From assembly GCA_038204585.1 (NCBI GenBank), contig JBBRCT010000007.1, positions 29,592 to 93,591 on the forward strand: a stretch of 64,000 bases of DNA. Direction: 5' to 3'. Source of the DNA: Sphingomonadales bacterium. Lineage in GTDB: Bacteria; Pseudomonadota; Alphaproteobacteria; Sphingomonadales; Sphingomonadaceae. The notes below the pieces were generated by a model. The model was not told the origin of the DNA. It was given only the letters and a program-made list of their open reading frames with translations, and did not search any database. Numbering within the stretch: position 1 is the first letter of the stretch; every line of letters begins with the position of its first letter. The translations under genes were made by a program, and so were the position numbers. This document shows, in pieces, positions 8,275 to 52,190 of the stretch.

Positions 8275-8993
8275 ATGAGTTTGATGGCCTGCAGGCGATG
8301 ATTTCTTTCACGCTGGCCGGGGTTCGGCCGATGGTGATGATGGCGCTGCTGCCGCCGATTGCCGGGGCGGCGCTGCCCTGGGCAGCGCGGCTTGCAGTTG
8401 TGGTATCGATCGCGATTTTTACGGCCTTTGGACCCAACGCAATGGCAATGGATGCGAGCATGCTGGGGGGCGAAGTGCTGGCGGGTTTGCTGGCCGGATT
8501 GGCGCTCGCGGCGGCGTTTGCGGGCGCGGTGATGGCGGGTGAAGTGGCGGCGAGTATTATCGGGCTGGGGTTTGCCAGCTTTGCGACGGCGGTCGGTAAT
8601 GTCTCGGTGCTGGGGAACTTCTATTCGGCGGTGATGGCGGTGGCCTGGCTTTCAACCGATGGTCATTTGAGATTGTTTGAGGGGATGGTTGCCGGCGGCG
8701 TGCTGCTGCCAGCGGGGGGTGTGGCGCTCGACGCGCTGACAATGGGAACGGTTGCGGGCTATGGCGCGGTGATGTTTGAAGGCGCGCTGCGGATGGCACT
8801 GCCGGTGGTCGGGCTGTTGCTGGTCGGCAATTTGCTGGTGGCGCTGGCGGTGCGCGCAGCACCGCAGCTCGGTGCCTTGGCGGTGGGTCCGCCGTTGCTT
8901 CTGCTACTGCTGGTGTGGGCACTGCCGCTGCTGCTTGACGGGCTGGTGATGCGGGCGCGGGTGACGCTTGAAGCGGCGGCGGCGCTGCTATGA
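8271..8993 (+). CDS. fliR: Flagellar export protein FliR
   Basis: Hydrophobic; EVLAGLLAG, MAGE...IGLGFA, DGHL, RAAPQL motifs. Confidence 0.88.
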   Translation: MNEFDGLQAMISFTLAGVRPMVMMALLPPIAGAALPWAARLAVVVSIAIFTAFGPNAMAMDASMLGGEVLAGLLAGLALAAAFAGAVMAGEVAASIIGLGFASFATAVGNVSVLGNFYSAVMAVAWLSTDGHLRLFEGMVAGGVLLPAGGVALDALTMGTVAGYGAVMFEGALRMALPVVGLLLVGNLLVALAVRAAPQLGALAVGPPLLLLLLVWALPLLLDGLVMRARVTLEAAAALL

Positions 8994-10117
8994 GCGATGC
9001 GGAGAAGACGCAGCCCGCAACGCCGAAGCGGCGGGCCGATGCGCTTAAGGAAGGCAATGTTTGGGCGCCGCGCGAGATTGGCCCGGCAGCGGCGGTTTTG
9101 GTGGCGGCAGCACTTCTGACCGCGGCGGGCGAGCGGCTTTGGTTTGGCTTGGCGGCGTTTTTGCGGTTGGCGCTTTCGGCGGCCGGGGAGGCGGCGCTGG
9201 CGGGGCCGGAGATGATGTTGGGCGCGGTGGTGGCGCTGATCCCGTGGCAGGGCGTTGTAGTGCTGGCGGTGGCGGTGATGCTGGTGACGGGCGGGCTGGT
9301 GCAGGGTGCTGCGCGCCATGTCTCTTTAGGGATGGCGGCGCCGAAGCTCTCAAGGCTTAGCCCGATGAAGGGCTTGCAGAAAATCTTTTCCATGCAGGGT
9401 CTGGCGGGGGCTGGGACGAGCCTGCTGAAGCTGGTGGTCATCGGGGGGGCTGGTGCTGCGGTGCTTTTGCCGCTGATCAGTGGTCTGGCCGAGGCGGGTG
9501 AGGGAGCGGGTGGACTGTCAGTTGTGGGGCAGGCTGTCTTGCGGCTGCTGGTCGCGGCGGCGCTGGCGATGATTGTTGTGGCTGGGGCCGATGCCGGGCT
9601 GACCTGGATACTGCGCGAGAACAAGTTGAAGATGAGCCTTGATGAGGTGAAGCGTGAGAACAGGCAGGACAATGGGGCGCCGGAGCTGAAGGCGGCGATC
9701 CGCCGGGCACAATTTGCGGCGTCCAAAAAGCGGCTGACAACGGTGCTGGCCGATGCGTCTGTGGTGGTGGTGAACCCGGTGCATTTTGCGGTGGCGCTGC
9801 GGTATCGGCCTGGTGAGGATGCCGAGCCGGTGATGCTGGAGAAGGGCCGCGAGGATTCAGCGCTGGCGATCATTGCGGTGGCACAGGCGCTGGGCAAGCC
9901 GGTGGTTCGCTCGCCCCGGCTGGCGCGGGCCTTGTTCTTTACAGGCCGCGCCGGGCAGGGCGTGCGCGAGGAGCTTTATCTGGCGGTGGCGACGGTGCTG
10001 GCGTTTGTGATGCGCTTTGAGGACATGCGCGATGTGCCTGCGGTTGAGGTGCCGCCGGCGTTTGACTTTGATGAGACGGGCGGGCGGCGCAAGCCGGGGG
10101 CGCCGCTGCCGTTATGA
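8990..10117 (+). CDS. flhB: Flagellar export switch protein FlhB
   Basis: EKTQPATPKR, LKMS..EVKRE, NPVH cleavage site, LARALF. Confidence 0.94.
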   Translation: MSDAEKTQPATPKRRADALKEGNVWAPREIGPAAAVLVAAALLTAAGERLWFGLAAFLRLALSAAGEAALAGPEMMLGAVVALIPWQGVVVLAVAVMLVTGGLVQGAARHVSLGMAAPKLSRLSPMKGLQKIFSMQGLAGAGTSLLKLVVIGGAGAAVLLPLISGLAEAGEGAGGLSVVGQAVLRLLVAAALAMIVVAGADAGLTWILRENKLKMSLDEVKRENRQDNGAPELKAAIRRAQFAASKKRLTTVLADASVVVVNPVHFAVALRYRPGEDAEPVMLEKGREDSALAIIAVAQALGKPVVRSPRLARALFFTGRAGQGVREELYLAVATVLAFVMRFEDMRDVPAVEVPPAFDFDETGGRRKPGAPLPL

Positions 10118-10124
10118 GGACATT

Positions 10125-11573
10125 ATGACGACTGATATTGTTTCACAGCTGGGGGCGGGCGCCGGGATCAACAGCCGGCAGGTGATCGATGAGCTGGTGT
10201 CGGCACAGCGGACGGCACAGACGACGCCGCTGAATGACCGGCTGGCGGTGCTGACGAGCCGTGGTGAGGCGCTGGGGCAGCTGAGATCAGCGCTTTCAGC
10301 GATTGCAGCATCATTGCAGGACCGGGTGCGCTCGGGTGCTTTTGGATTGCAGGCGCTTAGCAGTGATGCGGCTATTGTGGCTGTAGAGCGGCGCGGGACG
10401 GGTCCTGCGGCGTCGTTTCGATCGAGCCTGGTCGTCGAGCAGCTGGCCGCGGGCCAGCGGCTGGTGGCGGCGGCGCAGCCGGGGCTCGATGCGCCGGTTG
10501 GGCAGGGATCGCTGAACTTTGTGTTCGGCACGCGCACGGCGACGGTTGATGGCGGCTTTGAGTTTTCGGCAGGGGGCGCGGAGGCGGATTTTTCAGTGGT
10601 CATCGGGCCGGAGAATGCCACGCTGGCGGGGATGCGCGATGCCATTAATGCCGCGGCCAATGGCTCTGTGACGGCCTCGATTGTGTCGGGGAGCAATGGT
10701 TCAAGCCTTGTTTTGCGGGGCAAGGAGGGGGCAGCGCGGGCGTTTGTGGTGAGTGCGGCGGAGGATGCGGCGGCGGGCGGTGGCGGGCCAAGCCTGGCGA
10801 CTTTTGCTTATACGGCCGGTAATCCGGCGCTGGGCTTTTCGGCGGCGGCGGCGGATGCTGTGATGGTTTTTGACGGGGTTACGGTGACCCGCGACACCAA
10901 TGTTGTGGATGGGCTGGCGGACGGCATGCGGCTGCGGCTGAACCGAGTGAGCGATCCGCAGGGGGTGATTTTGGGGGCCGAGCGGGATGTGGCGTCACTA
11001 TCGGTGACATTGGCGGACTTTGCCGACACGTTGGGGGCAATGCGGCAGCTGGTGGGCGACTTCCGGCGCGGCGGCAGCGACGGGCAGGCAGCGGGGCCGC
11101 TGGCGGGTGATTCAACGGCGCGGAGCATGGATCAGGCGCTGGTGGCGATGCTGAATGCGCCTGTGGCGGCGGCGGGTGGGCTGCGGCTGCGGGATCTGGG
11201 TGTTGAGGTGACGCGCGAGGGATCGATACGTTTTGATGCGACGCGGTTTGCACAGGCGACGCCGGCGCAGCTGGGGCAGGCGGAGGCGTTGCTGAGTGCG
11301 CTATCGGGCAGTGGTTTTGGGCCTGATGGTCAAAGGCTGGGGCTGGCGGCATTGCAGACGATTGCGGGGCTGGCGACCCCTGCGACCGATGGGCTGGCGC
11401 GGCAGCGACGCGCTGTTTCACAAGCGCTGGAGCGGGCGGAGGCGCGGCTGACGACTTATCGCGAGCAGCTTGTGCGGCAATTTTCAGCGATGGATGTGCT
11501 GGTGGCATCGTCAAAAGCGTTGCAGACGCAGCTCGATCAGCTGGTGGACAGTTGGTATTCGCAGCGCAATTAG
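10125..11573 (+). CDS. fliD: Flagellar filament cap protein FliD
   Basis: LGAGAGIN N-terminus, VEQLA, C-terminal YREQLVRQFSAMD; GAGGA RBS before ATG 10125. Confidence 0.9.
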   Translation: MTTDIVSQLGAGAGINSRQVIDELVSAQRTAQTTPLNDRLAVLTSRGEALGQLRSALSAIAASLQDRVRSGAFGLQALSSDAAIVAVERRGTGPAASFRSSLVVEQLAAGQRLVAAAQPGLDAPVGQGSLNFVFGTRTATVDGGFEFSAGGAEADFSVVIGPENATLAGMRDAINAAANGSVTASIVSGSNGSSLVLRGKEGAARAFVVSAAEDAAAGGGGPSLATFAYTAGNPALGFSAAAADAVMVFDGVTVTRDTNVVDGLADGMRLRLNRVSDPQGVILGAERDVASLSVTLADFADTLGAMRQLVGDFRRGGSDGQAAGPLAGDSTARSMDQALVAMLNAPVAAAGGLRLRDLGVEVTREGSIRFDATRFAQATPAQLGQAEALLSALSGSGFGPDGQRLGLAALQTIAGLATPATDGLARQRRAVSQALERAEARLTTYREQLVRQFSAMDVLVASSKALQTQLDQLVDSWYSQRN

Positions 11574-44098: not shown

Positions 44099-46480
44099 TC
44101 AGCTGTCGCCTGAATTGATTTGTGTGAGGGCGAGGTAGAGCTTGCCGGGATCGGAGGCCAACAGGGTTCCGGCGAGAGCGCGGCCCTGCCTGTCGGCGGT
44201 GACATGGGTGATGAGGCTTTCGAAATCCTGTGCGAAACGCGCGGCATCGACCCTGAAGGCTGCATCATGGGCAAGATGGCGGCTGATGGCGCGCCCTGTA
44301 TCGGAATCGAGCGCCAGCGCCAGACCCCGCAGGAAGCGGCTGCGATCGCCGGCAAGCCAATCTTCATAGGCCTGATCCTCGATATCAAGGGCTAGCAGGC
44401 GGGTCAGGTCGATTGCCTGATCTTTCATGCTGCCGAGCAACTCAGTGGCGCGTCGGGCGAGATCGGATCGTTCGCGGATTTCGACTTCGGTCTGGCGTTT
44501 GTCGAAATGGGTTTCGACGCTGGTGACTGTTTGAGTGAGGGCAACCAGCCGGTTGGAGATGCGCTCGGCTGCGGCCTGAGCGGCGGCAGCGGCGCGATTT
44601 TGCTGGCTTTCAAGCGAGGCCAAGGCCGTGCGGACGGGCGCGCCAAAGGCAGATTCGGCTTTGGCGGTGGCGGCGCGGTCCAATGCTGCCTCAGCTTCCG
44701 CAACGACGCCTGAAAGCGTTTCGCGCATGGTGCCGGCGGACTGGGCTGCGACGTCGCGAATTCGGCTGAAACTTTCCAGCAGGGCGGCCGTGGCTACGAG
44801 CGCTTCATCCTCTGCACCCCGGGTAACGGCTGCGAGGCGGGTTTCTGCGCTGGTCAAACGTTCGTTGAGTGCTGCGGTGGCGTCCTCAAGCGCAGCGCCC
44901 GCGACTTCGAGGCGAGATTGGGCGGTAGCGAGACTGTCGATGCTCGCTTCAATTGGGGTGGAGAGGGCGGCGGCATCGTCCGAAAGCCTGGCAAGGCGGC
45001 TCCCAAGGTCTTCAAGGCCGGGCACGGCGGCCGGCACGGCTTCGGCGAGCTGCTCGAAGAACTGACCCGCTGCGCCGTCTAGGGTTGCGAGGTGGCCGAT
45101 GACCTTTTCGAGGCCGGACTGGGCTTCGGCGACAGGCGTGGCGAGGCCGGAGACACTCGAATGCACAGCGCTGAGGCGGCTATCGACGATTGTAAGCGTG
45201 GCATTGCCATGTTCGGCGCTGGCAGCGAGGGCCGCGTCGAAGCCCTCGATCTGAGCCTTGAGCGTTTCAGCCAATCGCGCGGCGCGTTCGGCCTGTGTGT
45301 CCAGATTGCTACCGAGGTCTGTGATACCGCCGGTCAGTTCGGCGATTCGAATGGCGATGGCGCGTGCCGATTCGCCGCCGATATTATCGATCGTCGTGCG
45401 GGCTTGTTCGACACTGGCGAGCATGGCGTTGGTTTGGGCGTGAACACCATCGCGTGTACTGCCGAGCGCGTCACTGGTCCGTATCAGGGCATTATCGACG
45501 GTCGTGACGATCTTTTCGGCCTGTGCGTCTAACGTCTCACGTGTGGTGGCCATCGCCTCGGCAGCGCGAGCGAGCACGGACTCTATAGCCACCAAGAAGA
45601 CACCGGACTGTGCGTCAAGGTCGTTGCGTGTTGTGGCGAGCGCCTCGGAGACGGTGGCAGCAAGGCTGACCGTCTGTTCACCGATGCCCTGGCGGGCGCT
45701 TTCAACGGCTTGATGTGTACGAGCGAGGGCGGAGTCGACGCCATCATTCAAGGCGCCAAGCGGCTCGGCGAGTGCGATTCGGGCTGTGTCGGTGGCTGCG
45801 GTGATGGCCATGATGCGCGCCTCTGCGGCGTCAGCTGTGGCTGTGGCTTCTGCGCGTGCCTCGGCAAGGCGCGCGGCGAGCCGTGAGAGAAGGCCTTCCG
45901 CATCGGCCATCTGGGTTGCCAGCGCATCCCGGCTGCCGGCGAGAATTACAGTGAGTTGCTCGGCCTTGACGGCCGCTGCTGGCGTTTCCTGACCAAGAGT
46001 AGCTGTAGCGACCTCGGTTCGCTGGACAGCCTCAAGGAGGCCGCTGCTGGTCTGCTGAAGGTCGGTAATCGTGGCGGCAAGGGCTTGGTGCTGGCGTTCG
46101 ACAGGCTTTGCCATGGCAGTGAGCTGGCCAGTGAGGTCCGAAAGGCGCTGTTCAAGCTGGCTTATGGCATCGGCCCCCTGTGCGAGCTGAAGCGTGGTGA
46201 GACGGGTCTGTTCGGCGAGAAGAGCACTACGCTCGGCGCGGAAACGGCCGCTATCCTGCAAGCGCAGGGCCACAAACCACAGCAAGGCGAGAGGCGCTGC
46301 GAAACTCAGGGTAATGCCTGCCACTACAGCAACGATATCGAAGCTGCCGGGCAGGCGCAGGCCGGGAATGAGCGGGATCATTGCGGCAGCTGTTACAAGG
46401 AGCCACAAAATAGTTGCGGCACCCGCGATCCAGAGCGGCCAGCGAGGTGGGGCGGGAAGGGGAGAGTCGTCTGACATCAT
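44099..46480 (-). CDS. TipN-like membrane-anchored coiled-coil polarity protein
   Basis: Two N-terminal TMs, long Ala-rich helical repeats, C-terminal WLAGDRSRF...DFESL...LLASDPGKLYLAL. ATG 46480 overlaps the upstream TAA. Confidence 0.68.
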   Translation of the reverse strand: MMSDDSPLPAPPRWPLWIAGAATILWLLVTAAAMIPLIPGLRLPGSFDIVAVVAGITLSFAAPLALLWFVALRLQDSGRFRAERSALLAEQTRLTTLQLAQGADAISQLEQRLSDLTGQLTAMAKPVERQHQALAATITDLQQTSSGLLEAVQRTEVATATLGQETPAAAVKAEQLTVILAGSRDALATQMADAEGLLSRLAARLAEARAEATATADAAEARIMAITAATDTARIALAEPLGALNDGVDSALARTHQAVESARQGIGEQTVSLAATVSEALATTRNDLDAQSGVFLVAIESVLARAAEAMATTRETLDAQAEKIVTTVDNALIRTSDALGSTRDGVHAQTNAMLASVEQARTTIDNIGGESARAIAIRIAELTGGITDLGSNLDTQAERAARLAETLKAQIEGFDAALAASAEHGNATLTIVDSRLSAVHSSVSGLATPVAEAQSGLEKVIGHLATLDGAAGQFFEQLAEAVPAAVPGLEDLGSRLARLSDDAAALSTPIEASIDSLATAQSRLEVAGAALEDATAALNERLTSAETRLAAVTRGAEDEALVATAALLESFSRIRDVAAQSAGTMRETLSGVVAEAEAALDRAATAKAESAFGAPVRTALASLESQQNRAAAAAQAAAERISNRLVALTQTVTSVETHFDKRQTEVEIRERSDLARRATELLGSMKDQAIDLTRLLALDIEDQAYEDWLAGDRSRFLRGLALALDSDTGRAISRHLAHDAAFRVDAARFAQDFESLITHVTADRQGRALAGTLLASDPGKLYLALTQINSGDS

Positions 46481-47370
46481 TACTCCGGACGTAGCACCGC
46501 AGAGGATTGGCTGGCCAGCGTAGCTTCGCGATTCCGCAGTCGATTGTTCATAAAGAATGCAATTAGCGTTAGGGCTATGATCTCCCACCACCAATAGAGC
46601 CGCGGATCGCCGGCGAGGCAGGCGAGTGCGATGGCGATTGTGCGATTATTTGCCGAGAGAATGGACATCTGGCGAATGATCGGCGCGGTAAGATCGAGAT
46701 AGTCGGGAAGCAAGCCTGGCCGCGCGGTGAGCGCCATGTCCATTCGCCGGTGACTGCGATTGAACCGATTCTCGGCCCAGTTATAGGGCGCTGCAATGGC
46801 GGGGCCGGCAGGGCGGGGCGCTATGGTGAACTCACCGACAAGGCGACGCTTCCACGCCTCGCGCTCACCTTCGTACCAGGCCGATTGGAGCGCATGGAAG
46901 CAACCAGAAACCGCAGCCAGAGCAAGCGTGTTCTTCCAGTCCGGGAAGGACAGGGCGAGCGGGATGATAACGACTATGAAGGTTAGATAATCGCAAACGC
47001 CGTCGATCACCCTGCCAAGCGGGCTGGCCTTGCCCGATGCGCGAGCGAGTTTGCCATCGAGACCGTCACAGACATGCCATGCGAACATGGCCAGAAAGCC
47101 CGCGATGACAAACCTTGGATCGTGCCAATTCCAGTAACAAAAGCCGGCCAGAATACCGAACCCCATGCCCGCAAAAGACACTGTGTTGGGATGAATATCC
47201 AGCTTGAGTGCGGCTGGCAGCAGCCGCCATGACATGGGATGGACCAGCCAGAGGTTGCTGGGATCCTCGATCGCATCAGGGCGCGCGGTATCTGTTGCAG
47301 TTTTGTGCACGGCTGCTTTGCTAGGCCGGTGGATCGGGGGTTGGCAAGCGGCCTTGGCAAGATGTGGCAC
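46480..47370 (-). CDS. CDP-alcohol phosphotransferase (start may be GTG 47310)
   Basis: HPNTVS and the full signature DGLDGKLAR...GRVIDGVCD. Confidence 0.92.
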   Translation of the reverse strand: MPHLAKAACQPPIHRPSKAAVHKTATDTARPDAIEDPSNLWLVHPMSWRLLPAALKLDIHPNTVSFAGMGFGILAGFCYWNWHDPRFVIAGFLAMFAWHVCDGLDGKLARASGKASPLGRVIDGVCDYLTFIVVIIPLALSFPDWKNTLALAAVSGCFHALQSAWYEGEREAWKRRLVGEFTIAPRPAGPAIAAPYNWAENRFNRSHRRMDMALTARPGLLPDYLDLTAPIIRQMSILSANNRTIAIALACLAGDPRLYWWWEIIALTLIAFFMNNRLRNREATLASQSSAVLRPE

Positions 47371-47394
47371 AAACCCCTATGAGACGCGCCAGCG

Positions 47395-48717
47395 ATGGCG
47401 TGTATTGGCGTTCTTTTGGCCCCCGAGGCGTTCCAGGCGGGATTGGTCATTGGCGGGATCACATTGCTTGAGCGTCAAGCACGCACTCTTAGGCGGGCAG
47501 GATGCACGACGCTGCTTCTGGTGGCGCCACAGCCGCTTACAAAGGTGCCTGAAGGGGTTGAAACTGTAACGATGGCGGGGCTGCCGGCGCGAATGGCAGA
47601 TGCCGGATTCGCGGTTGTTCTGGCGCCAGGACTGACGATCGACGAACGGGCGGTGGCGGCGATTCTTGACGTCGAAGAAGCGGCAATTCTGGTGAGCGAT
47701 GGCGCTTCACATGGTGGCGTTGAACGCCTTGATGCGGCCAACCTCGCGTCGGGCGTGATGAAATTGCCGGCCGCAATGCTTGCTGAAGTGGCTGGGGGGC
47801 TAGGCGACTGGGACTTCCATTCGACACTGATTCGTCTGGCGGCTGCGGACCCGACGGTGACGCGCATTTCGATCGCTGATATCGAGCTTTATGCGCCCGA
47901 GCGGCGGCGTCTGGTGCCAATGATATGGGCGCGACCGGTGGAAGAGGCGGCGGCTGCTGAGACAACTCGGCTAGTGATTGCAGCAGCCCAGAAAGGCGCG
48001 CTCGACTGGCCGGCGCGGTTTGTGCATCCATTGATCGAAGACACGCTGGTGCGCCTGCTTGCCCCCAGCTTTGTGACGCCGAACATGGTAACGCTGGTGA
48101 CGGCGATCCTGGGATTTGCTGCTGCCGGGCTGTTTGCCGCTGGAATGTTGTGGTGGGCATTGGGACTGGCCTTGCTTTGTGGCCCGCTTGACGGCGTGGA
48201 CGGCAAGCTGGCGCGGACCCGGATCGAGTTTTCGCGCTGGGGGGACCTTGAGCATGTGCTCGACAAGCTGATCGAATATGTCTGGTATCTCTGTGCCGCC
48301 TGGTGGTTTTCCGGGGCGGCTGCCGATGGTGGGCTGGGATCGGGCTTGCCCTGGGCTGTGGCGGCGCTGATTATTTTTCCAGCACTTTCGGAATCGCTTC
48401 AGGGCGAATTTTTTCGGCGTATTACCGGCAAGCAGCTGGACGATGCTGGCACCTTCGAGCGCCGATTGCGGCTTGTTGCCGGACGCCGGAACACCTTTCT
48501 TTGGACATGGGCAGCGATGGCAGCAATGGGCTGGTGGTTTCAAGGCTTTGTGCTGCTGGCAGGCTATAGCATGGTTACAACCGCCATCACGCAGTGGCGC
48601 TTTTACAGTCGGTTAGGTGAATTCCTCAGGGCTGGCGATGCTCGTGTGAAGGCCAACTATGCTGCCAGCAGCTATGGTTTCCTCACCAAAGCGTCCTTGC
48701 CGAGCGAACCCCTGTAG
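47395..48717 (+). CDS. Degenerate nucleotidyltransferase-like domain fused to a CDP-alcohol phosphotransferase
   Basis: N-terminal IGGITLLERQARTLRRAG; C-terminal TPNMVT and DGVDGKLAR...GDLEHVLD. Confidence 0.85.
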   Translation: MACIGVLLAPEAFQAGLVIGGITLLERQARTLRRAGCTTLLLVAPQPLTKVPEGVETVTMAGLPARMADAGFAVVLAPGLTIDERAVAAILDVEEAAILVSDGASHGGVERLDAANLASGVMKLPAAMLAEVAGGLGDWDFHSTLIRLAAADPTVTRISIADIELYAPERRRLVPMIWARPVEEAAAAETTRLVIAAAQKGALDWPARFVHPLIEDTLVRLLAPSFVTPNMVTLVTAILGFAAAGLFAAGMLWWALGLALLCGPLDGVDGKLARTRIEFSRWGDLEHVLDKLIEYVWYLCAAWWFSGAAADGGLGSGLPWAVAALIIFPALSESLQGEFFRRITGKQLDDAGTFERRLRLVAGRRNTFLWTWAAMAAMGWWFQGFVLLAGYSMVTTAITQWRFYSRLGEFLRAGDARVKANYAASSYGFLTKASLPSEPL

Positions 48718-48788
48718 TATAACTGCCACAAATTATCTGCCTCGCCGGTATGGGGGCTGAGGTTTCGTCGTGAAAGGAACTGCTTGAA

Positions 48789-49892
48789 ATGTCGTTGATT
48801 CCTGTCGCCCTGATTGGGGTGGGCAATTGCGTTTCGTCGCTTGTGCAGGGCCTTTACCACTACGCCAATGGCGGGTCCAACGACGAGCAAGGCCTTATGC
48901 ATTGGGATATGGGCGGCTATCGGCCCAAGGACATCAAGGTTGTGTCGGCCTGGGATATTGATGCCCGCAAGGTTGGCAAGGATGTGTCCGAGGCGATCTT
49001 TGCCAAGCCTAATTGCACTGCTGTGTTCTGCGATCATGTTGAGCCGACGGGAACTATCGTCCAGATGGGGCGGATTCTCGATGGTGTTTCGCCGCATATG
49101 GCTTCCCACCCGGAGCATCGGCGCTTCATCGTCTCCGACGCTCCGCAGCCGACCAAGGCCGAGGTCGTTGAAAGCCTGAAGCGTTCCGGTGCTGAGGTGA
49201 TGTGCAATTATTTACCGGTCGGCAGCCAGGAGGCCACCGAATTCTACGCTGATGTGGCGATTACGGCAGGCGTGGCGTTCGTTAACAACATGCCGGTGTT
49301 CATCGCTTCCAACCCGGTATGGGCGGAAAAATTCCGGGCGGCCGGTGTGCCGATCATTGGTGATGACATCAAGGCGCAGCTTGGTGCCACCATCGTCCAC
49401 CGGACATTGACCGACCTGTTTGCCAAGCGCGGCGTAACGCTGGACCGGACGTATCAGCTGAACACCGGCGGCAACACCGACTTTCTGAACATGCTGAACC
49501 GTGAGCGGCTGGCTTCTAAGAAGGAATCTAAAACCGAGGCTGTGCAATCGGTGGCGCATACCAGGCTTGACGATGAGAACATCCATGTTGGGCCTTCGGA
49601 CTATGTGCCGTGGCAGAACGACAACAAGGTCTGCTTCTTGCGCATGGAAGGCCGTATGTTTGGCGGCGTGCCGATGAACATAGAGCTTCGTCTATCGGTG
49701 GAAGACAGCCCGAACTCGGCGGGCGTTGCCATCGATATGATCCGTTGTGCAAAGATTGCACTCGATCGTGGCCTGGCAGGCCCGGTTCTTCAGCCATCAT
49801 CCTATTTCTGCAAGCATCCGCCCGTGCAGGTGACCGATGATGAGGCCTTTGTGGCAGTTGAACAGTTTGTTGCTGGCGAGACGCTGAACTAG
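48789..49892 (+). CDS. ino1: myo-inositol-1(3)-phosphate synthase (MIPS)
   Basis: GVGNCVSSLVQG, GDDIK, YQLNTGGNTDFLNM, KKESKT, HVGPSDYV, DSPNSAG, KHPP. Confidence 0.96.
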   Translation: MSLIPVALIGVGNCVSSLVQGLYHYANGGSNDEQGLMHWDMGGYRPKDIKVVSAWDIDARKVGKDVSEAIFAKPNCTAVFCDHVEPTGTIVQMGRILDGVSPHMASHPEHRRFIVSDAPQPTKAEVVESLKRSGAEVMCNYLPVGSQEATEFYADVAITAGVAFVNNMPVFIASNPVWAEKFRAAGVPIIGDDIKAQLGATIVHRTLTDLFAKRGVTLDRTYQLNTGGNTDFLNMLNRERLASKKESKTEAVQSVAHTRLDDENIHVGPSDYVPWQNDNKVCFLRMEGRMFGGVPMNIELRLSVEDSPNSAGVAIDMIRCAKIALDRGLAGPVLQPSSYFCKHPPVQVTDDEAFVAVEQFVAGETLN

Positions 49893-49917
49893 TCTGAACT
49901 GGGCCGGGTACGCGAGC

Positions 49918-50616
49918 GTGCAGGCGATCATCCTTGCCGCTGGTATGGGCACACGTTTACGCAGCGTATCGGCCTCAAAGCCGCTGACTCTTGTTGGCGG
50001 TAAGCCACTCCTGCGCCGCATAATGGACAATCTTGCAGCCGCCGGTGTGAGCAGGACGGTTGTGATTACTGGCTATGAGGGGGACCGTGTGTCTGCTGCG
50101 GCGCGGGCTGCGGGCGCGGAGACGGTGCACAATGACCGCTGGGCCGAGCCGAACGGGGTTTCTGTTATGGCAGCCTCTGTGGTGCTGGAGGAAAAGGCAT
50201 TGCTGGTGATGGGCGATCATTTGGCGTCGCCGGAACTTTACGCTGCCGTGGCGGCGGCGTCGCTGGTCAATGCCGGGCTGGTTCTTGGGGTTGATCGCAG
50301 GTTGGGGCATCCATGGGTGGACGAAGAAGATGTGACGCGCGTTTCAACGCGGCCGTCGAGTGAAGGTGCTGACCGGATTGTTGCCATAGGCAAGTCTATC
50401 GCCAGCTATGATGCGTATGATTGCGGGGTTTTCCTTATTACCGCCGAGCTTATGGATGCGTTGGCCAGGCTGCCGCGACCGGGTCTTTCCGACGGGGTGA
50501 GGGTGCTTGCTGCCCGTGGTCGGGCAGCGGTGCACGATGTGTCGCTTCACGATTGGATCGATATTGATGATCCGCGGGCCCTTGCGCTCGCCGAGCAATG
50601 GGTGGCGGCAGCTTAG
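49918..50616 (+). CDS. CTP:inositol-phosphate cytidylyltransferase-like (IPCT/LicC family)
   Basis: ILAAGMGTRL, KPL, NGVS, MGDH, DCGVF, WIDIDD; directly downstream of MIPS. Confidence 0.82.
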   Translation: MQAIILAAGMGTRLRSVSASKPLTLVGGKPLLRRIMDNLAAAGVSRTVVITGYEGDRVSAAARAAGAETVHNDRWAEPNGVSVMAASVVLEEKALLVMGDHLASPELYAAVAAASLVNAGLVLGVDRRLGHPWVDEEDVTRVSTRPSSEGADRIVAIGKSIASYDAYDCGVFLITAELMDALARLPRPGLSDGVRVLAARGRAAVHDVSLHDWIDIDDPRALALAEQWVAAA

Positions 50617-52190
50617 AAACGCTGACGCAATTGGACTTCGATTGCTGCGCGTGATGCTCTGCGGCCCGGTGTGCTGGGACTGTCGGATTGCCACCGCGTT
50701 TCAATCCTGAGATCGCCAAACTTCAATGGCAGTTCGGCGCCGGCGGTGAGAATAGCGAATTTTTCGGATGACGTTGAAACCGGATTGCTGATCGCGGGAC
50801 CTGGGCTGCCATCGGGCCTTGGGAAAATGGCTGTGGGCGGATTGCCGAGATCGATGATGTTGAGATGGACGGAGCGTGCCGATGTATACCAGCGGCGATT
50901 GCGTGTATCGGTGATGGCGGCGTGGATTACGAGATTGCGGCTATCACCTGCGGACCAATGGCCGATGGGGCGACCGCGATAGGTGAATCCGGATGTGTAC
51001 AGGCTGTTGTTATAAAACGCGCCGGGATAGCGGGTTTGGCCACCGGTGGCGGCTTCGAGCGGCGTGCCGTTGAAAAACGAGACCGCCAGTGTATCGGAAT
51101 ATTCGATTGTCGTGGAGTAGCTGGCACCGCGACTGCCGGCTGCACCGCTCAGCGTGAGGCCGATGAGACGGCCCCATTGTTCGAGGATGATATTGTCGAA
51201 ATCCTCGGCCTCCCCTTCGAAATAGAGCTTGGCGGCGACGCCCCTGAAGTTGTGCGTGTAGCTGAGATCGAAGCCGGCAAGCTGGTTGCCGGCCTGGGAC
51301 AGGAACGCGGCGGTATTACCCGGATCCGGATTATCGGCATTGCCGACGCCGATGAAGGATTGCGCGATCTGGCGCAGTCCGCATGGGCGCCCTTGACCGC
51401 AAAGCATCTGCGCACGGTTAAGGCCGACCTCGAAGCCCTGTGAGGGCATGAAACTGAGGCGCGTGCCGACGGTGATGGCATTGTTGAAATCCCGATTCTC
51501 GTTGAGGACGCCGGCGAACAGATCGAGCCGGACCGGGCCGAGCCAGCGCAGGACGGGGAGATCAATCGGATCGGGATTGAGGCGTTTTATGCCAATTTTT
51601 GGTATCGGGCGGGCGCTGTTGGAGAATAGGAGCGCGCCATCGACGCCGGGGCCGAACCATTGCTCATTGTTGCCGGCATATAGAGCCCAATTGCCGAGGC
51701 GGAGGGTAGCCTGGGAGGGCTCAAGATGAAATGGTGCGCTGGCCTGATCGCTGCGGTAGCCGCCGCCGACGCTGATTGAGATGATATCGCCATTGGCTTC
51801 GATACGGCCGGACACATCGGCCTTTCCCCGGGCAAGCGTTCCGAAATCGCGGGCGGTGGAGACTTCGTTGGTGCCCATCAGCCGGGCTTCGACAGCGATG
51901 CCCTTGGCGTTGAAATCGGCCAGTCGATCGAGTCTCGTGACGGCGGCCTGGAGATGAAGCGGCAGTGCGCGGCCGTCCTTGGCGCGATTGAGGCCTGATT
52001 CTATCTGTGCCCAGGGCAACGGCCAGCTGTCTACCGGGCCACGGATAAGCCCGGCAGCCGCGAGCAAGCCGACATCCTGACGGAGTTGGCGATCGCCGAC
52101 TTCGGCGAAAGGTCCGGCGACCGCCGTTGTTCCTGATGCGGTGGCGATCAGGACGGCAGCAAACCGGATCAGAAAGCGGCTTGCTGCCAT
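50613..52190 (-). CDS. wzi: Capsule assembly Wzi-family outer-membrane protein
   Basis: Signal peptide, LAAAGLI..PVDSWPLPW, WFGPG.DGALLFSNSARP, GNQLAGFD, terminal Phe. Confidence 0.9.
   Translation of the reverse strand: MAASRFLIRFAAVLIATASGTTAVAGPFAEVGDRQLRQDVGLLAAAGLIRGPVDSWPLPWAQIESGLNRAKDGRALPLHLQAAVTRLDRLADFNAKGIAVEARLMGTNEVSTARDFGTLARGKADVSGRIEANGDIISISVGGGYRSDQASAPFHLEPSQATLRLGNWALYAGNNEQWFGPGVDGALLFSNSARPIPKIGIKRLNPDPIDLPVLRWLGPVRLDLFAGVLNENRDFNNAITVGTRLSFMPSQGFEVGLNRAQMLCGQGRPCGLRQIAQSFIGVGNADNPDPGNTAAFLSQAGNQLAGFDLSYTHNFRGVAAKLYFEGEAEDFDNIILEQWGRLIGLTLSGAAGSRGASYSTTIEYSDTLAVSFFNGTPLEAATGGQTRYPGAFYNNSLYTSGFTYRGRPIGHWSAGDSRNLVIHAAITDTRNRRWYTSARSVHLNIIDLGNPPTAIFPRPDGSPGPAISNPVSTSSEKFAILTAGAELPLKFGDLRIETRWQSDSPSTPGRRASRAAIEVQLRQRF

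Follow-up and report, generated by a model that had tools for sequence, protein, structure and literature searches.

In Rhodothermus marinus, a MIPS-IPCT-BEPIS operon is responsible for CDP-inositol-dependent ether-lipid synthesis (Jorge et al. 2015, as cited in PMC4587543 and PMC9246714). A locus in the window analysed here (the whole stretch of 64,000 nucleotides) resembles this system as these sources describe it: MIPS, a stand-alone IPCT and a CDP-alcohol phosphotransferase lie in one operon-like unit, and CDP-inositol would give its head group straight to a lipid alcohol, with no PIP intermediate or phosphatase. The differences, from the same sources, are the BEPIS acceptor, a dialkylether glycerol, and the host, a thermophilic member of the Bacteroidota/Rhodothermota not known there for sphingolipids. 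A second, DIPPS-like transferase (T2) is present in our locus, and the small transferase (T1) is compared with BEPIS by description. Our host produces sphingolipids, and outside its order the family goes with gene clusters of serine palmitoyltransferase (SPT), so that the acceptor is likely to be ceramide, unlike for BEPIS. The abstract of the 2015 study by Jorge and colleagues reportedly mentions alphaproteobacterial homologues already.

The putative 'alternative' inositol-lipid cluster of Bacteroides vulgatus and Prevotella likewise combines MIPS, an NTP-transferase-domain protein and a CDP-alcohol phosphatidyltransferase; CDP-inositol was proposed there too, with inositol-phosphodihydroceramide as the end product of a scheme that is itself a proposal (Heaver et al. 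2022, PMC9246714). A HAD hydrolase of that cluster, proposed to act in PI-DAG to PI-DHC conversion (PMC9246714), is absent here, and its absence speaks for a transfer directly to ceramide. The two sphingomonads tested by Heaver et al. had no homology to the clusters of that paper. In Novosphingobium acidiphilum, for which a PI-dihydroceramide-like lipid with no known genes has been reported, they found no homology to the 'alternative' NTP-transferase/transferase genes of Bacteroides (PMC9246714).

The pathway to di-myo-inositol phosphate (DIP) consists of MIPS, IPCT and DIPPS (A. fulgidus AF0263, PDB 4MND/2XME), and we compared AF2299 (4O6M) along with it. IPCT is the closest solved relative of our cytidylyltransferase, T2 has the two-domain IPCT-DIPPS/AF2299 architecture with its juxtamembrane helix, and in structure the T1 membrane domain comes nearest to AF2299 and DIPPS. 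However, the nucleotidyltransferase domain of T2 is degenerate, as is that of AF2299, and the host here is a non-thermophile in which the gene context speaks for an exported lipid, not a solute. In Caulobacter crescentus, CpgD and CpgA act on a sphingolipid (ceramide diphosphoglycerate): the IMPCT-like cytidylyltransferase CpgD makes the CDP-activated head group (PMC12275187, PMC9393093), and an enzyme of the PgsA-domain CDP-alcohol transferase family, compared here by description, adds it to the sphingolipid. The Caulobacter system sets an alphaproteobacterial precedent for the proposed chemistry, including the tandem addition from CPG to CPG2, although the head group is phosphoglycerate, the first phosphate comes from the ceramide kinase CpgB and MIPS is uninvolved.

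Gene content and conservation of the locus

The four open reading frames described in the earlier note were all present at the coordinates and on the strands given there (Table 1), and its divergent pair of CDP-alcohol phosphotransferases was borne out, T1 lying on the minus strand and T2 leading a single plus-strand operon with MIPS and IPCT. T1 may start at GTG 47370 or alternatively at GTG 47311, a two-way choice because its homologues measure 255-285 aa; the T1/T2 gap is 24 bp with the first start and 83 bp with the second. A simple consensus scan of this 24-bp region found no sigma-70-like site. The surmise of a sphingomonad host agrees with the nearest named relatives, which are Polymorphobacter MAGs, and with the SPT of the genome (732 bits against a curated alphaproteobacterial cut-off of 670 bits).

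Table 1. Positions of the module genes and adjoining features in the window
Feature	Coordinates	Strand	Evidence
T1, small CDP-alcohol phosphotransferase, core module member	46480..47370	-	PF01066, 39.5 bits
Divergent intergenic region between T1 and the T2-MIPS-IPCT operon	47371..47394	.	from sequence
T2, IPCT-DIPPS/AF2299-like CDP-alcohol phosphotransferase, accessory, 440 aa	47395..48717	+	PF01066, 31.2 bits
MIPS, myo-inositol-3-phosphate (L-myo-inositol-1-phosphate) synthase	48789..49892	+	PF01658, 126 bits; TIGR03450, 437 bits
IPCT-like cytidylyltransferase, candidate for CTP + inositol phosphate to CDP-inositol	49918..50616	+	NTP_transf_3, 60 bits
Wzi-like outer-membrane protein, neighbour	50613..52190	-	PF14052, 5e-59

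The analysis shows the identities of the genes, their conserved catalytic residues and folds, and their co-occurrence and synteny. None of the four module enzymes reached a curated equivalog cut-off in the NCBIfam profile search. The TIGR03450 score of MIPS is below the 638-bit actinobacterial cut-off; the protein shares 62-89% identity with its counterparts. Among NCBIfam models, the IPCT-like enzyme best matched the IPCT half of IPCT/DIPPS (97.5 bits); its best relatives among solved structures were A. fulgidus IPCT 2XME (6.5e-15), IPCT/DIPPS 4MND and T. maritima IMPCT 4JD0. Residues G9, G11, R13, K21 and D100 were invariant in an alignment of 23 orthologues, and the gene is the sole one of its kind in the genome. 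As Caulobacter CpgD is IPCT-like in structure yet uses phosphoglycerate, the specificity assigned to this enzyme rests mainly on its invariable MIPS neighbour.

T1 carries the canonical motif D102-G-x-D105-G-x2-A109-R110-x8-G119-x3-D123-x3-D127, which was invariant in an alignment of 34 homologues. Its best relatives among solved structures were CDP-choline:DAG phosphotransferases (8ERO, 2e-5) and DIPPS when compared by sequence, and AF2299 and DIPPS when compared by structure; the AF2 model (pLDDT 90) matched AF2299 with a VIA Z of 18.8, DIPPS with 16.7, PIPS with 14 and CPT1/CEPT1 with 11-12.7. A soluble CDP-alcohol is the known donor for CPT1/CEPT1 and DIPPS (AF2299 is not counted in this respect). 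A domain search found no domain other than CDP-OH_P_transf in either T1 or T2.

A survey of 301 Sphingomonadales genomes detected T1 in 101 and IPCT in 99; 98 carried both, 199 neither and 4 only one of the two (IPCT alone in one genome, T1 alone in three, all of them incomplete MAGs). T1, MIPS and IPCT were together in 20 of 20 loci sampled from seven families of the order, Novosphingobium having the bare three-gene module. This clustering and the genome-by-genome co-occurrence of T1 and IPCT mean that the arrangement is not due to chance. MIPS adjoins T1/IPCT in 24 of 33 loci, namely the 20 loci of the order sample, two of named Polymorphobacter and two of five from the outgroup. Catalytic T2 is carried by ∼38 of the 101 T1-bearing genomes (∼38%). 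Thus, the conserved unit is T1, MIPS and IPCT, with T2 as an accessory; of the four-gene module of the earlier note, for which it had suggested a synteny survey, these three genes hold across relatives and T2 is not universal.

The Wzi-like gene adjoins IPCT in seven of the loci. It occurs in 71 of 281 genomes independently of the module: one family has it in 10 of 12 genomes with T1/IPCT in none of the 12, and all 18 Novosphingobium genomes lack it. The Wzi-like protein is probably outside the pathway.

The proposed pathway and its lipid acceptor

Our favoured reading, which we consider moderately probable, is a CDP-inositol-dependent, Kennedy-type inositol-phosphoceramide pathway with T2 as an accessory, DIPPS-like enzyme. 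The head group rather than the lipid would be activated. For the substrates of IPCT, T1 and T2 and for the product, we infer the following: MIPS would convert glucose-6-phosphate to L-myo-inositol-1-phosphate, the IPCT-like enzyme would combine this with CTP to give CDP-inositol, and membrane-bound T1 would use CDP-inositol to attach inositol phosphate to a membrane lipid at its free hydroxyl, releasing CMP, so that a phosphatase step would be unnecessary. The near-perfect co-occurrence of T1 and IPCT supports the earlier proposal that MIPS and IPCT supply CDP-inositol for a membrane lipid. With ceramide as the acceptor, the product would be inositol-phosphoceramide bound for the outer membrane, and we propose T1 as a putative CDP-inositol:ceramide inositol-phosphotransferase. 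The eukaryotic AUR1-type and Bacteroides BT_1522 synthases make the same product class, but they belong to other protein families than T1/T2 and take the head group from phosphatidylinositol; the proposed route is PI-free. Because the phosphate of L-myo-inositol-1-phosphate would become the diester, the opposite inositol linkage position is predicted, enantiomeric to that of eukaryotic IPC. The cluster thus offers candidates for the genes behind the inositol sphingolipid that has been reported from a Novosphingobium species.

The case for ceramide comes from outside the order, since all Sphingomonadales members make sphingolipids and an association with SPT is uninformative among them. In a sample of 400 other Alphaproteobacteria (about three per family), T1 occurred in five genomes. 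SPT was present in all five, against a base rate of 52/401 (13%); the five fall into four genera, and close relatives do not count as independent cases. In three of them (an Aliidongia-like genome and two others), MIPS-IPCT-T1 lies within ∼8 kb of SPT (649-677 bits, above the curated cut-off of 500 bits) and other ceramide genes. These clusters also hold an AMP-binding ACP-synthetase-like gene, a CerR-like epimerase and a fatty-acid hydroxylase, as well as LptF/G-like permeases, GT4, GT32 and PIG-L genes. In the window genome, SPT and homologues of the AMP-binding, CerR-like and hydroxylase genes lie on contig C1 and the module on contig C7.

It is possible, though doubtful, that the product of the module is instead phosphatidylinositol or some other inositol glycerophospholipid, with T1 and/or T2 transferring inositol phosphate to diacylglycerol and no ceramide involved. 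Modules within Sphingomonadales are not adjacent to ceramide genes, the top sequence match of T1 among solved structures is a CDP-choline:DAG phosphotransferase, the sole CDP-inositol lipid enzyme characterised according to PMC4587543, BEPIS, uses a glycerol acceptor, and the scheme of Heaver et al. runs via PI-DAG (PMC9246714). Against this stand the confinement of outgroup T1 to SPT-bearing genomes, its place among ceramide-synthesis genes in three of the five, and the domain search, which found no HAD/AUR1-like enzyme for transfer of the head group from PI to ceramide in the module. Ceramide, which the earlier note had named beside DAG as a possible acceptor, is in our view the most likely one.

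At 6 loci of relatives the module includes an MMPL/RND transporter that has a sterol-sensing domain, and at 9 loci it includes a MOP flippase-like protein. Like the LptF/G-like permeases of the outgroup clusters, such genes fit an exported lipid rather than a cytoplasmic solute, in line with the membrane-lipid product suggested earlier, and the product is probably exported.

T2, an accessory two-domain transferase

The PF01066 match of T2 spans residues 227-329 and is preceded by an N-terminal domain of ∼200 aa. This domain is without GxGxR and, judged from its sequence, is a dead pseudo-cytidylyltransferase. The membrane motif DGVDGKLAR-x8-G-x2-EH-x2-DK was invariant in 15 orthologues; all 15 have Glu in place of the third Asp of the signature, and the spacing differs (G-x2-E-H-x2-D versus G-x3-D-x3-D). 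A sequence search of solved structures at E<=1 returned AF2299 4O6M (2.2e-6) and IPCT/DIPPS 4MND (4.6e-6) and nothing else, and in a Foldseek comparison of the AF2 model (pLDDT 87) the closest full-length structure was 4MND (1.3e-12 over 455 columns), AF2299 giving a TMt of 0.8. The 'two different transferases' of the earlier note are both real, and the dead domain and invariant altered signature make T2 more specifically an IPCT-DIPPS/AF2299-type two-domain protein.

For T2 we prefer a role in which it would perform the DIPPS reaction on a lipid-bound acceptor, so that IPC would receive a second inositol phosphate, in parallel with Caulobacter CpgA (CPG to CPG2); alternatively, it could serve a second acceptor such as diacylglycerol. 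That T2 is instead a true DIPP synthase, forming DIP as a compatible solute in a mesophile together with MIPS and IPCT while T1 is otherwise engaged, appears highly improbable, although the closest full-length structure, the top NCBIfam match (IPCT/DIPPS) and the single T2-MIPS-IPCT operon agree with it. The NCBIfam score is 42 bits against a cut-off of 580 bits, and the degenerate domain, the altered signature, the patchy occurrence of T2 beside a nearly universal T1 and the lipid exporter genes of relatives speak against this role. The cluster also has no phosphatase gene, for PIP or otherwise. To our knowledge, DIP occurs in (hyper)thermophiles only, which also counts against it; DIP is an unlikely product and was rightly ranked second at the outset.

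T2 always lies directly upstream of MIPS, even where the module is dispersed (as in genome G161). Module-less relatives have a T2-like gene at the same locus (RNaseJ-unk831-[T2]-gltA-gltX), and where MIPS, IPCT and T1 are absent it has lost the catalytic motif and two further conserved motifs, which indicates that T2 catalysis depends on the pathway. This loss fits dependence on inositol phosphate and on CDP-inositol equally. It would suit, as does the constant MIPS neighbour, a classical PIP synthase that makes PI from CDP-diacylglycerol and inositol-1-phosphate without IPCT, by the mycobacterial/Bacteroides route, leaving T1 and IPCT to make the sphingolipid. Weak matches of T2 to the PIP synthase (35 bits) and archaetidylinositol-phosphate synthase (32 bits) models point the same way. 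We regard this role as improbable, given the restricted set of solved-structure matches and the lack of a PIP phosphatase gene in the cluster. Moreover, of the 29 genomes in which T2 matched most strongly (E<=1e-40), 27 also carry IPCT, and no case of T2 and MIPS without IPCT was seen in a survey that covered T2 and IPCT genome-wide and MIPS at the loci.

Layout and distribution of the module

The earlier note had placed four genes here, with the small CDP-alcohol phosphotransferase T1 divergent from the others, and the ORF listing together with profile searches bore this out (see table). The 440-aa DIPPS/AF2299-like transferase T2, the inositol-3-phosphate synthase (MIPS) and the IPCT-like cytidylyltransferase (IPCT) are read in the same direction with gaps of 71 and 25 bp, and the start codon of T1 is either GTG 47370 or GTG 47311. 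The genes flanking the module are those for RNase J and an 831-aa membrane protein with a coiled coil at one end, and Wzi, gltA and gltX at the other. Between 46300 and 50900, simple scans for promoters and terminators gave nothing above the shuffled expectation.

Coordinates of the module genes, their neighbours and the related loci (L numbers denote loci fetched from relatives)
Feature	Position	Strand	Remarks
T1, CDP-alcohol phosphotransferase	46480-47370	-	canonical catalytic signature
T2, CDP-alcohol transferase domain in C-terminal half, plus ~200-residue N-terminal domain	47395-48717	+	profile searches
MIPS, inositol-3-phosphate synthase	48789-49892	+	profile searches
IPCT, small nucleotidyltransferase	49918-50616	+	IPCT half of archaeal IPCT/DIPPS model; solved IPCTs
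831-aa protein	44099-46594	-	two N-terminal membrane helices, ~700-aa Ala/Leu-rich coiled coil
Wzi-like outer-membrane protein	50613-52190	-	convergent, 4-bp overlap with IPCT stop
MOP flippase-like and MMPL/RND genes	L023:6247-7704 and 8409-10928		also L024-L027, L030-L033; several families of the order
MIPS-IPCT-T1 with SPT, LptF/G-like, GT4, GT32 (Gly_transf_sug) and PIG-L genes	L048:5588-16507; L047:7772-16899; L049:845-7719		outside the order
T2-like relics	L061:7821-9119; L062:7510-8700; L063:7918-9153		
T2-like relics	L064:7674-8873; L065:7549-8757; L066:8051-9283		

The assembly to which this contig (C7) belongs is 2.26 Mb in size and 81% complete. Its nearest named relatives are Polymorphobacter MAGs, where the gene order is identical; close homologues of T1 were found in Polymorphobacter and Sandarakinorhabdus, and a contig search with a single protein returned three close relatives only. 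The GC skew has unusually high values, 0.1-0.29 along the window and, taken as absolute values, up to ~0.18 for entire contigs of this genome, which looks like a genome-wide strand asymmetry and not a local feature.

Among 301 Sphingomonadales genomes, T1-like genes were present in 101 and IPCT-like genes in 99, with near-identical family and genus tallies. Both occurred in 98 genomes, IPCT alone in one and T1 alone in three, all of the latter being incomplete MAGs. T1, MIPS and IPCT were together in all 20 fetched loci, covering seven families. The core is present in about one third of the sampled Sphingomonadales. In Novosphingobium the unit consists of just these three genes, and 14 of the 18 sampled species carry it. 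T2 orthologues with an intact motif were observed in ~38 of the 101 T1-bearing genomes, always directly upstream of MIPS. The conserved core thus comprises three genes, T2 being an accessory member. The expectation in the earlier note that all four genes co-occur in relatives was upheld by the synteny survey of Sphingomonadales for T1, MIPS and IPCT, and for T2 in the minority of genomes given above.

Two adjacent genes were considered as further members and rejected. Wzi adjoins the module in seven loci. It occurs in 71 of 281 genomes whether or not these carry the module, and all 18 Novosphingobium genomes lack it; since this genome-wide distribution is independent of the module, we treated it as a neighbour. 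Other genera have it on the IPCT strand, downstream of that gene, and its orientation here and in the Polymorphobacter MAGs is thus inverted. The 831-aa gene downstream of T1 stays by RNase J across the family with or without the inositol module and is probably unrelated; a partial paralogue is located on another contig (C24) of this genome. Among related loci, nine hold a MOP/Polysacc_synt flippase-like gene and six a transporter of the MMPL/RND type that has a sterol-sensing domain; the genome of the window itself, 81% complete, gave no MMPL homologue.

The cytidylyltransferase and T1

Residues G9, G11, R13, K21 and D100 of the IPCT-like protein (P0004) were invariant in 23 aligned orthologues, the first three forming the G-x-G-x-R loop of the nucleotidyltransferase fold. 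In T. maritima IMPCT the active-site residues are R16, K26 and D112 (PMC12275187), and P0004 combines the loop with a Lys and an Asp matching this active site. Its solved relatives 2XME (6.5e-15), 4MND (3.4e-14) and 4JD0 (7.3e-10) all rank ahead of LicC 1JYK (2.3e-8), the solved IPCTs being those of A. fulgidus and T. maritima. The top NCBIfam match is the IPCT half of NF041135, with 97.5 bits against a cut-off of 580; this model describes the fused Thermococcales IPCT/DIPPS, of which only half can match. Judged by sequence, the nearest characterised relatives of P0004 are IPCTs and not other cytidylyl- or uridylyltransferases. A preference for inositol-1-phosphate and CTP over the phosphoglycerate used by CpgD is a candidate activity suggested by the MIPS context: MIPS was beside a P0004-type gene or within the same module in 24 of 33 loci, including all 20 of the order sample.

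The catalytic signature of T1 was invariant in 34 homologues. Its best solved relatives by sequence are CDP-choline:DAG phosphotransferases and DIPPS, and its AlphaFold model (pLDDT 90) is closest to AF2299 (Z 18.8) and DIPPS (Z 16.7), with PIP synthases and CPT1/CEPT1 behind. CPT1/CEPT1 and DIPPS take a soluble CDP-alcohol donor. Naming the acceptor of T1 from the fold was rejected, because the model has matches in all solved classes of CDP-alcohol transferase (Z 9-19) and such a comparison cannot separate lipid from soluble acceptors. Against the PIP synthase models NF045883 and NF040950 (cut-offs 170 and 180), T1 scored 28 and 44 bits. An IPC synthase of the AUR1/BT_1522 type, which would carry out a PI-dependent transfer to give inositol-phosphoceramide (IPC), was also rejected, as PF01066 is the only Pfam match of T1 and of T2. 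T1 is homologous to the membrane domain of T2 (hhalign probability 98.5%). None of the module proteins reaches any curated equivalog cut-off; their database names are generic, and the ESM Atlas gave only CDP-alcohol transferase clusters with generic names.

T1 does have the gene context of BEPIS, the Rhodothermus CDP-inositol lipid enzyme, being a CDP-OH_P_transf enzyme whose gene forms an operon-like unit with those of MIPS and IPCT. The most economical reading is a three-step scheme. MIPS would provide L-myo-inositol-1-phosphate, IPCT would convert it to CDP-inositol, and T1 would transfer the inositol phosphate to ceramide with release of CMP, the product then being exported. Such a pathway would require no phosphatase, and no phosphatase gene is encoded in the module.

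Linkage to ceramide genes

Inositol sphingolipids are characteristic of fungi, plants and protozoa; to our knowledge, those of bacteria are genetically understood only in Bacteroides. In the window's genome, serine palmitoyltransferase (SPT) scored 732 bits against the curated alphaproteobacterial cut-off of 670. On another contig (C1), it adjoins homologues of an AMP-binding ACP-synthetase-like gene and of a CerR-like epimerase, with a fatty-acid hydroxylase ~6 kb from this group. The SPT score and these ceramide-gene homologues identify the host as a ceramide producer. The inositol module, on C7, does not adjoin the ceramide genes.

As far as we know, all Sphingomonadales make sphingolipids, and the informative comparison therefore lies outside the order. 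Among 400 other Alphaproteobacteria (~3 per family), the search for T1 gave matches in five genomes. All five had a strong SPT match, against a base rate of 52 of 401 in the same sample; five genomes are a small sample, and those that are related do not count as independent. Three of these genomes have MIPS, IPCT and T1 within a few kb of SPT (649-677 bits; NF047599 cut-off 500). The same clusters also contain an AMP-binding enzyme, a CerR-like epimerase, a fatty-acid hydroxylase, two LptF/G-like permeases, GT4 and GT32 glycosyltransferases and a PIG-L-type deacetylase. By their named homologues, these genomes fall among Aliidongia, Nitrospirillum and Acetobacteraceae. No other evidence points as strongly to ceramide as the probable acceptor of T1 as this position within ceramide clusters does. 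The gene content of the outgroup clusters (Aliidongia-like and others) further suggests a glycosylated, GIPC/GPI-like inositol sphingolipid with an exporter of its own.

The inositol-lipid interpretation put forward in the earlier note thus gains support, as a prediction, from co-occurrence and from the outgroup SPT clusters. Computationally, the module is well anchored as a variant of the CDP-inositol-dependent lipid head-group pathways. The MIPS-IPCT-BEPIS operon of Rhodothermus (as cited in PMC4587543) follows the same logic, as does the candidate 'alternative' cluster of Bacteroides vulgatus and Prevotella (PMC9246714), although the HAD gene of the latter is missing here and T2 is extra. 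Heaver et al. (PMC9246714) reported a PI-dihydroceramide-like lipid in Novosphingobium acidiphilum, where their search for homologues of the two known gene clusters found none. The three-gene core offers concrete candidate genes for this lipid. Our literature search found no paper characterising the module in Alphaproteobacteria.

If T1 uses ceramide, there would be a third, independent route to IPC in which CDP-inositol is the activated form of the head group, and the CpgD/CpgA principle of Caulobacter would extend to inositol. The outer membrane of sphingomonads is LPS-free, and an anionic lipid added to it would bear on envelope charge and on interactions with antimicrobial peptides and phages.

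T2 and its relics

The AlphaFold model of T2 (pLDDT 87) superposes over its full length on the A. fulgidus IPCT-DIPPS 4MND (Foldseek 1.3e-12, 455 columns), and thus has the same two-domain architecture. With the AF2299 structures 4O6N/4O6M/4Q7C (TMt 0.79-0.81) it shares an N-domain of nucleotidyltransferase fold without the catalytic loop, GxGxR being present in no orthologue, fused to a six-helix transferase core. As we know of no physiological substrate for AF2299, membership in this type assigns T2 no function. The membrane signature D-G-V-D-G-K-L-A-R-x8-G-x2-E-H-x2-D-K was present in all 15 orthologues; compared to the canonical D-x2-D-G-x2-A-R-x8-G-x3-D-x3-D of DIPPS, Glu replaces the third Asp and the spacing is reduced by one residue.

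We favour a DIPPS reaction on a lipid-bound acceptor, in which T2 would add a second inositol phosphate to IPC. A parallel is found in Caulobacter, where CpgA converts CPG to CPG2 with CDP-glycerate from the IMPCT-like CpgD (PMC12275187, PMC9393093). T2 may instead transfer to DAG, carry out classical PIP synthesis or make DIPP. It scores below the curated cut-offs for the last two, with 35 and 32 bits on NF045883 and NF040950 and 42.3 bits against the DIPPS equivalog cut-off of 580. A true pathway to a di-myo-inositol-phosphate (DIP) solute is unlikely because T2 occurs only sporadically and has an altered motif, and because the genomic context is that of lipid export.

Taking both transferases together, T1 might be an uncharacterised kind of bacterial IPC synthase, forming IPC directly from CDP-inositol and ceramide with the inositol linkage position opposite to that of eukaryotic IPC, and T2 a lipid-directed descendant of DIPP synthases. 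The resulting ceramide with a di-inositol-diphosphate head group in the LPS-free outer membrane is a speculative proposal, and we consider it rather improbable that it holds in full.

In Sphingomonadaceae devoid of T1, MIPS and IPCT, a T2-like ORF of 400-430 aa is still present in this place, with RNase J and the coiled-coil protein before it and gltA and gltX after it. Pfam no longer recognises the CDP-alcohol transferase domain in these genes, and in the alignment they retain neither the D-G-x2-A-R core nor the AQKGxLDWPAR helix nor the GEFFRR...QLDDAG loop. Since the motifs are lost in module-free relatives, catalytic T2 is kept only alongside the synthesis of inositol phosphate and CDP-inositol. 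The relics tie T2 to the pathway; they do not show that its donor is CDP-inositol. The retained gene either encodes a conserved pseudoenzyme or has acquired a new role, and the decayed copies provide a natural loss-of-function series for evolutionary study.
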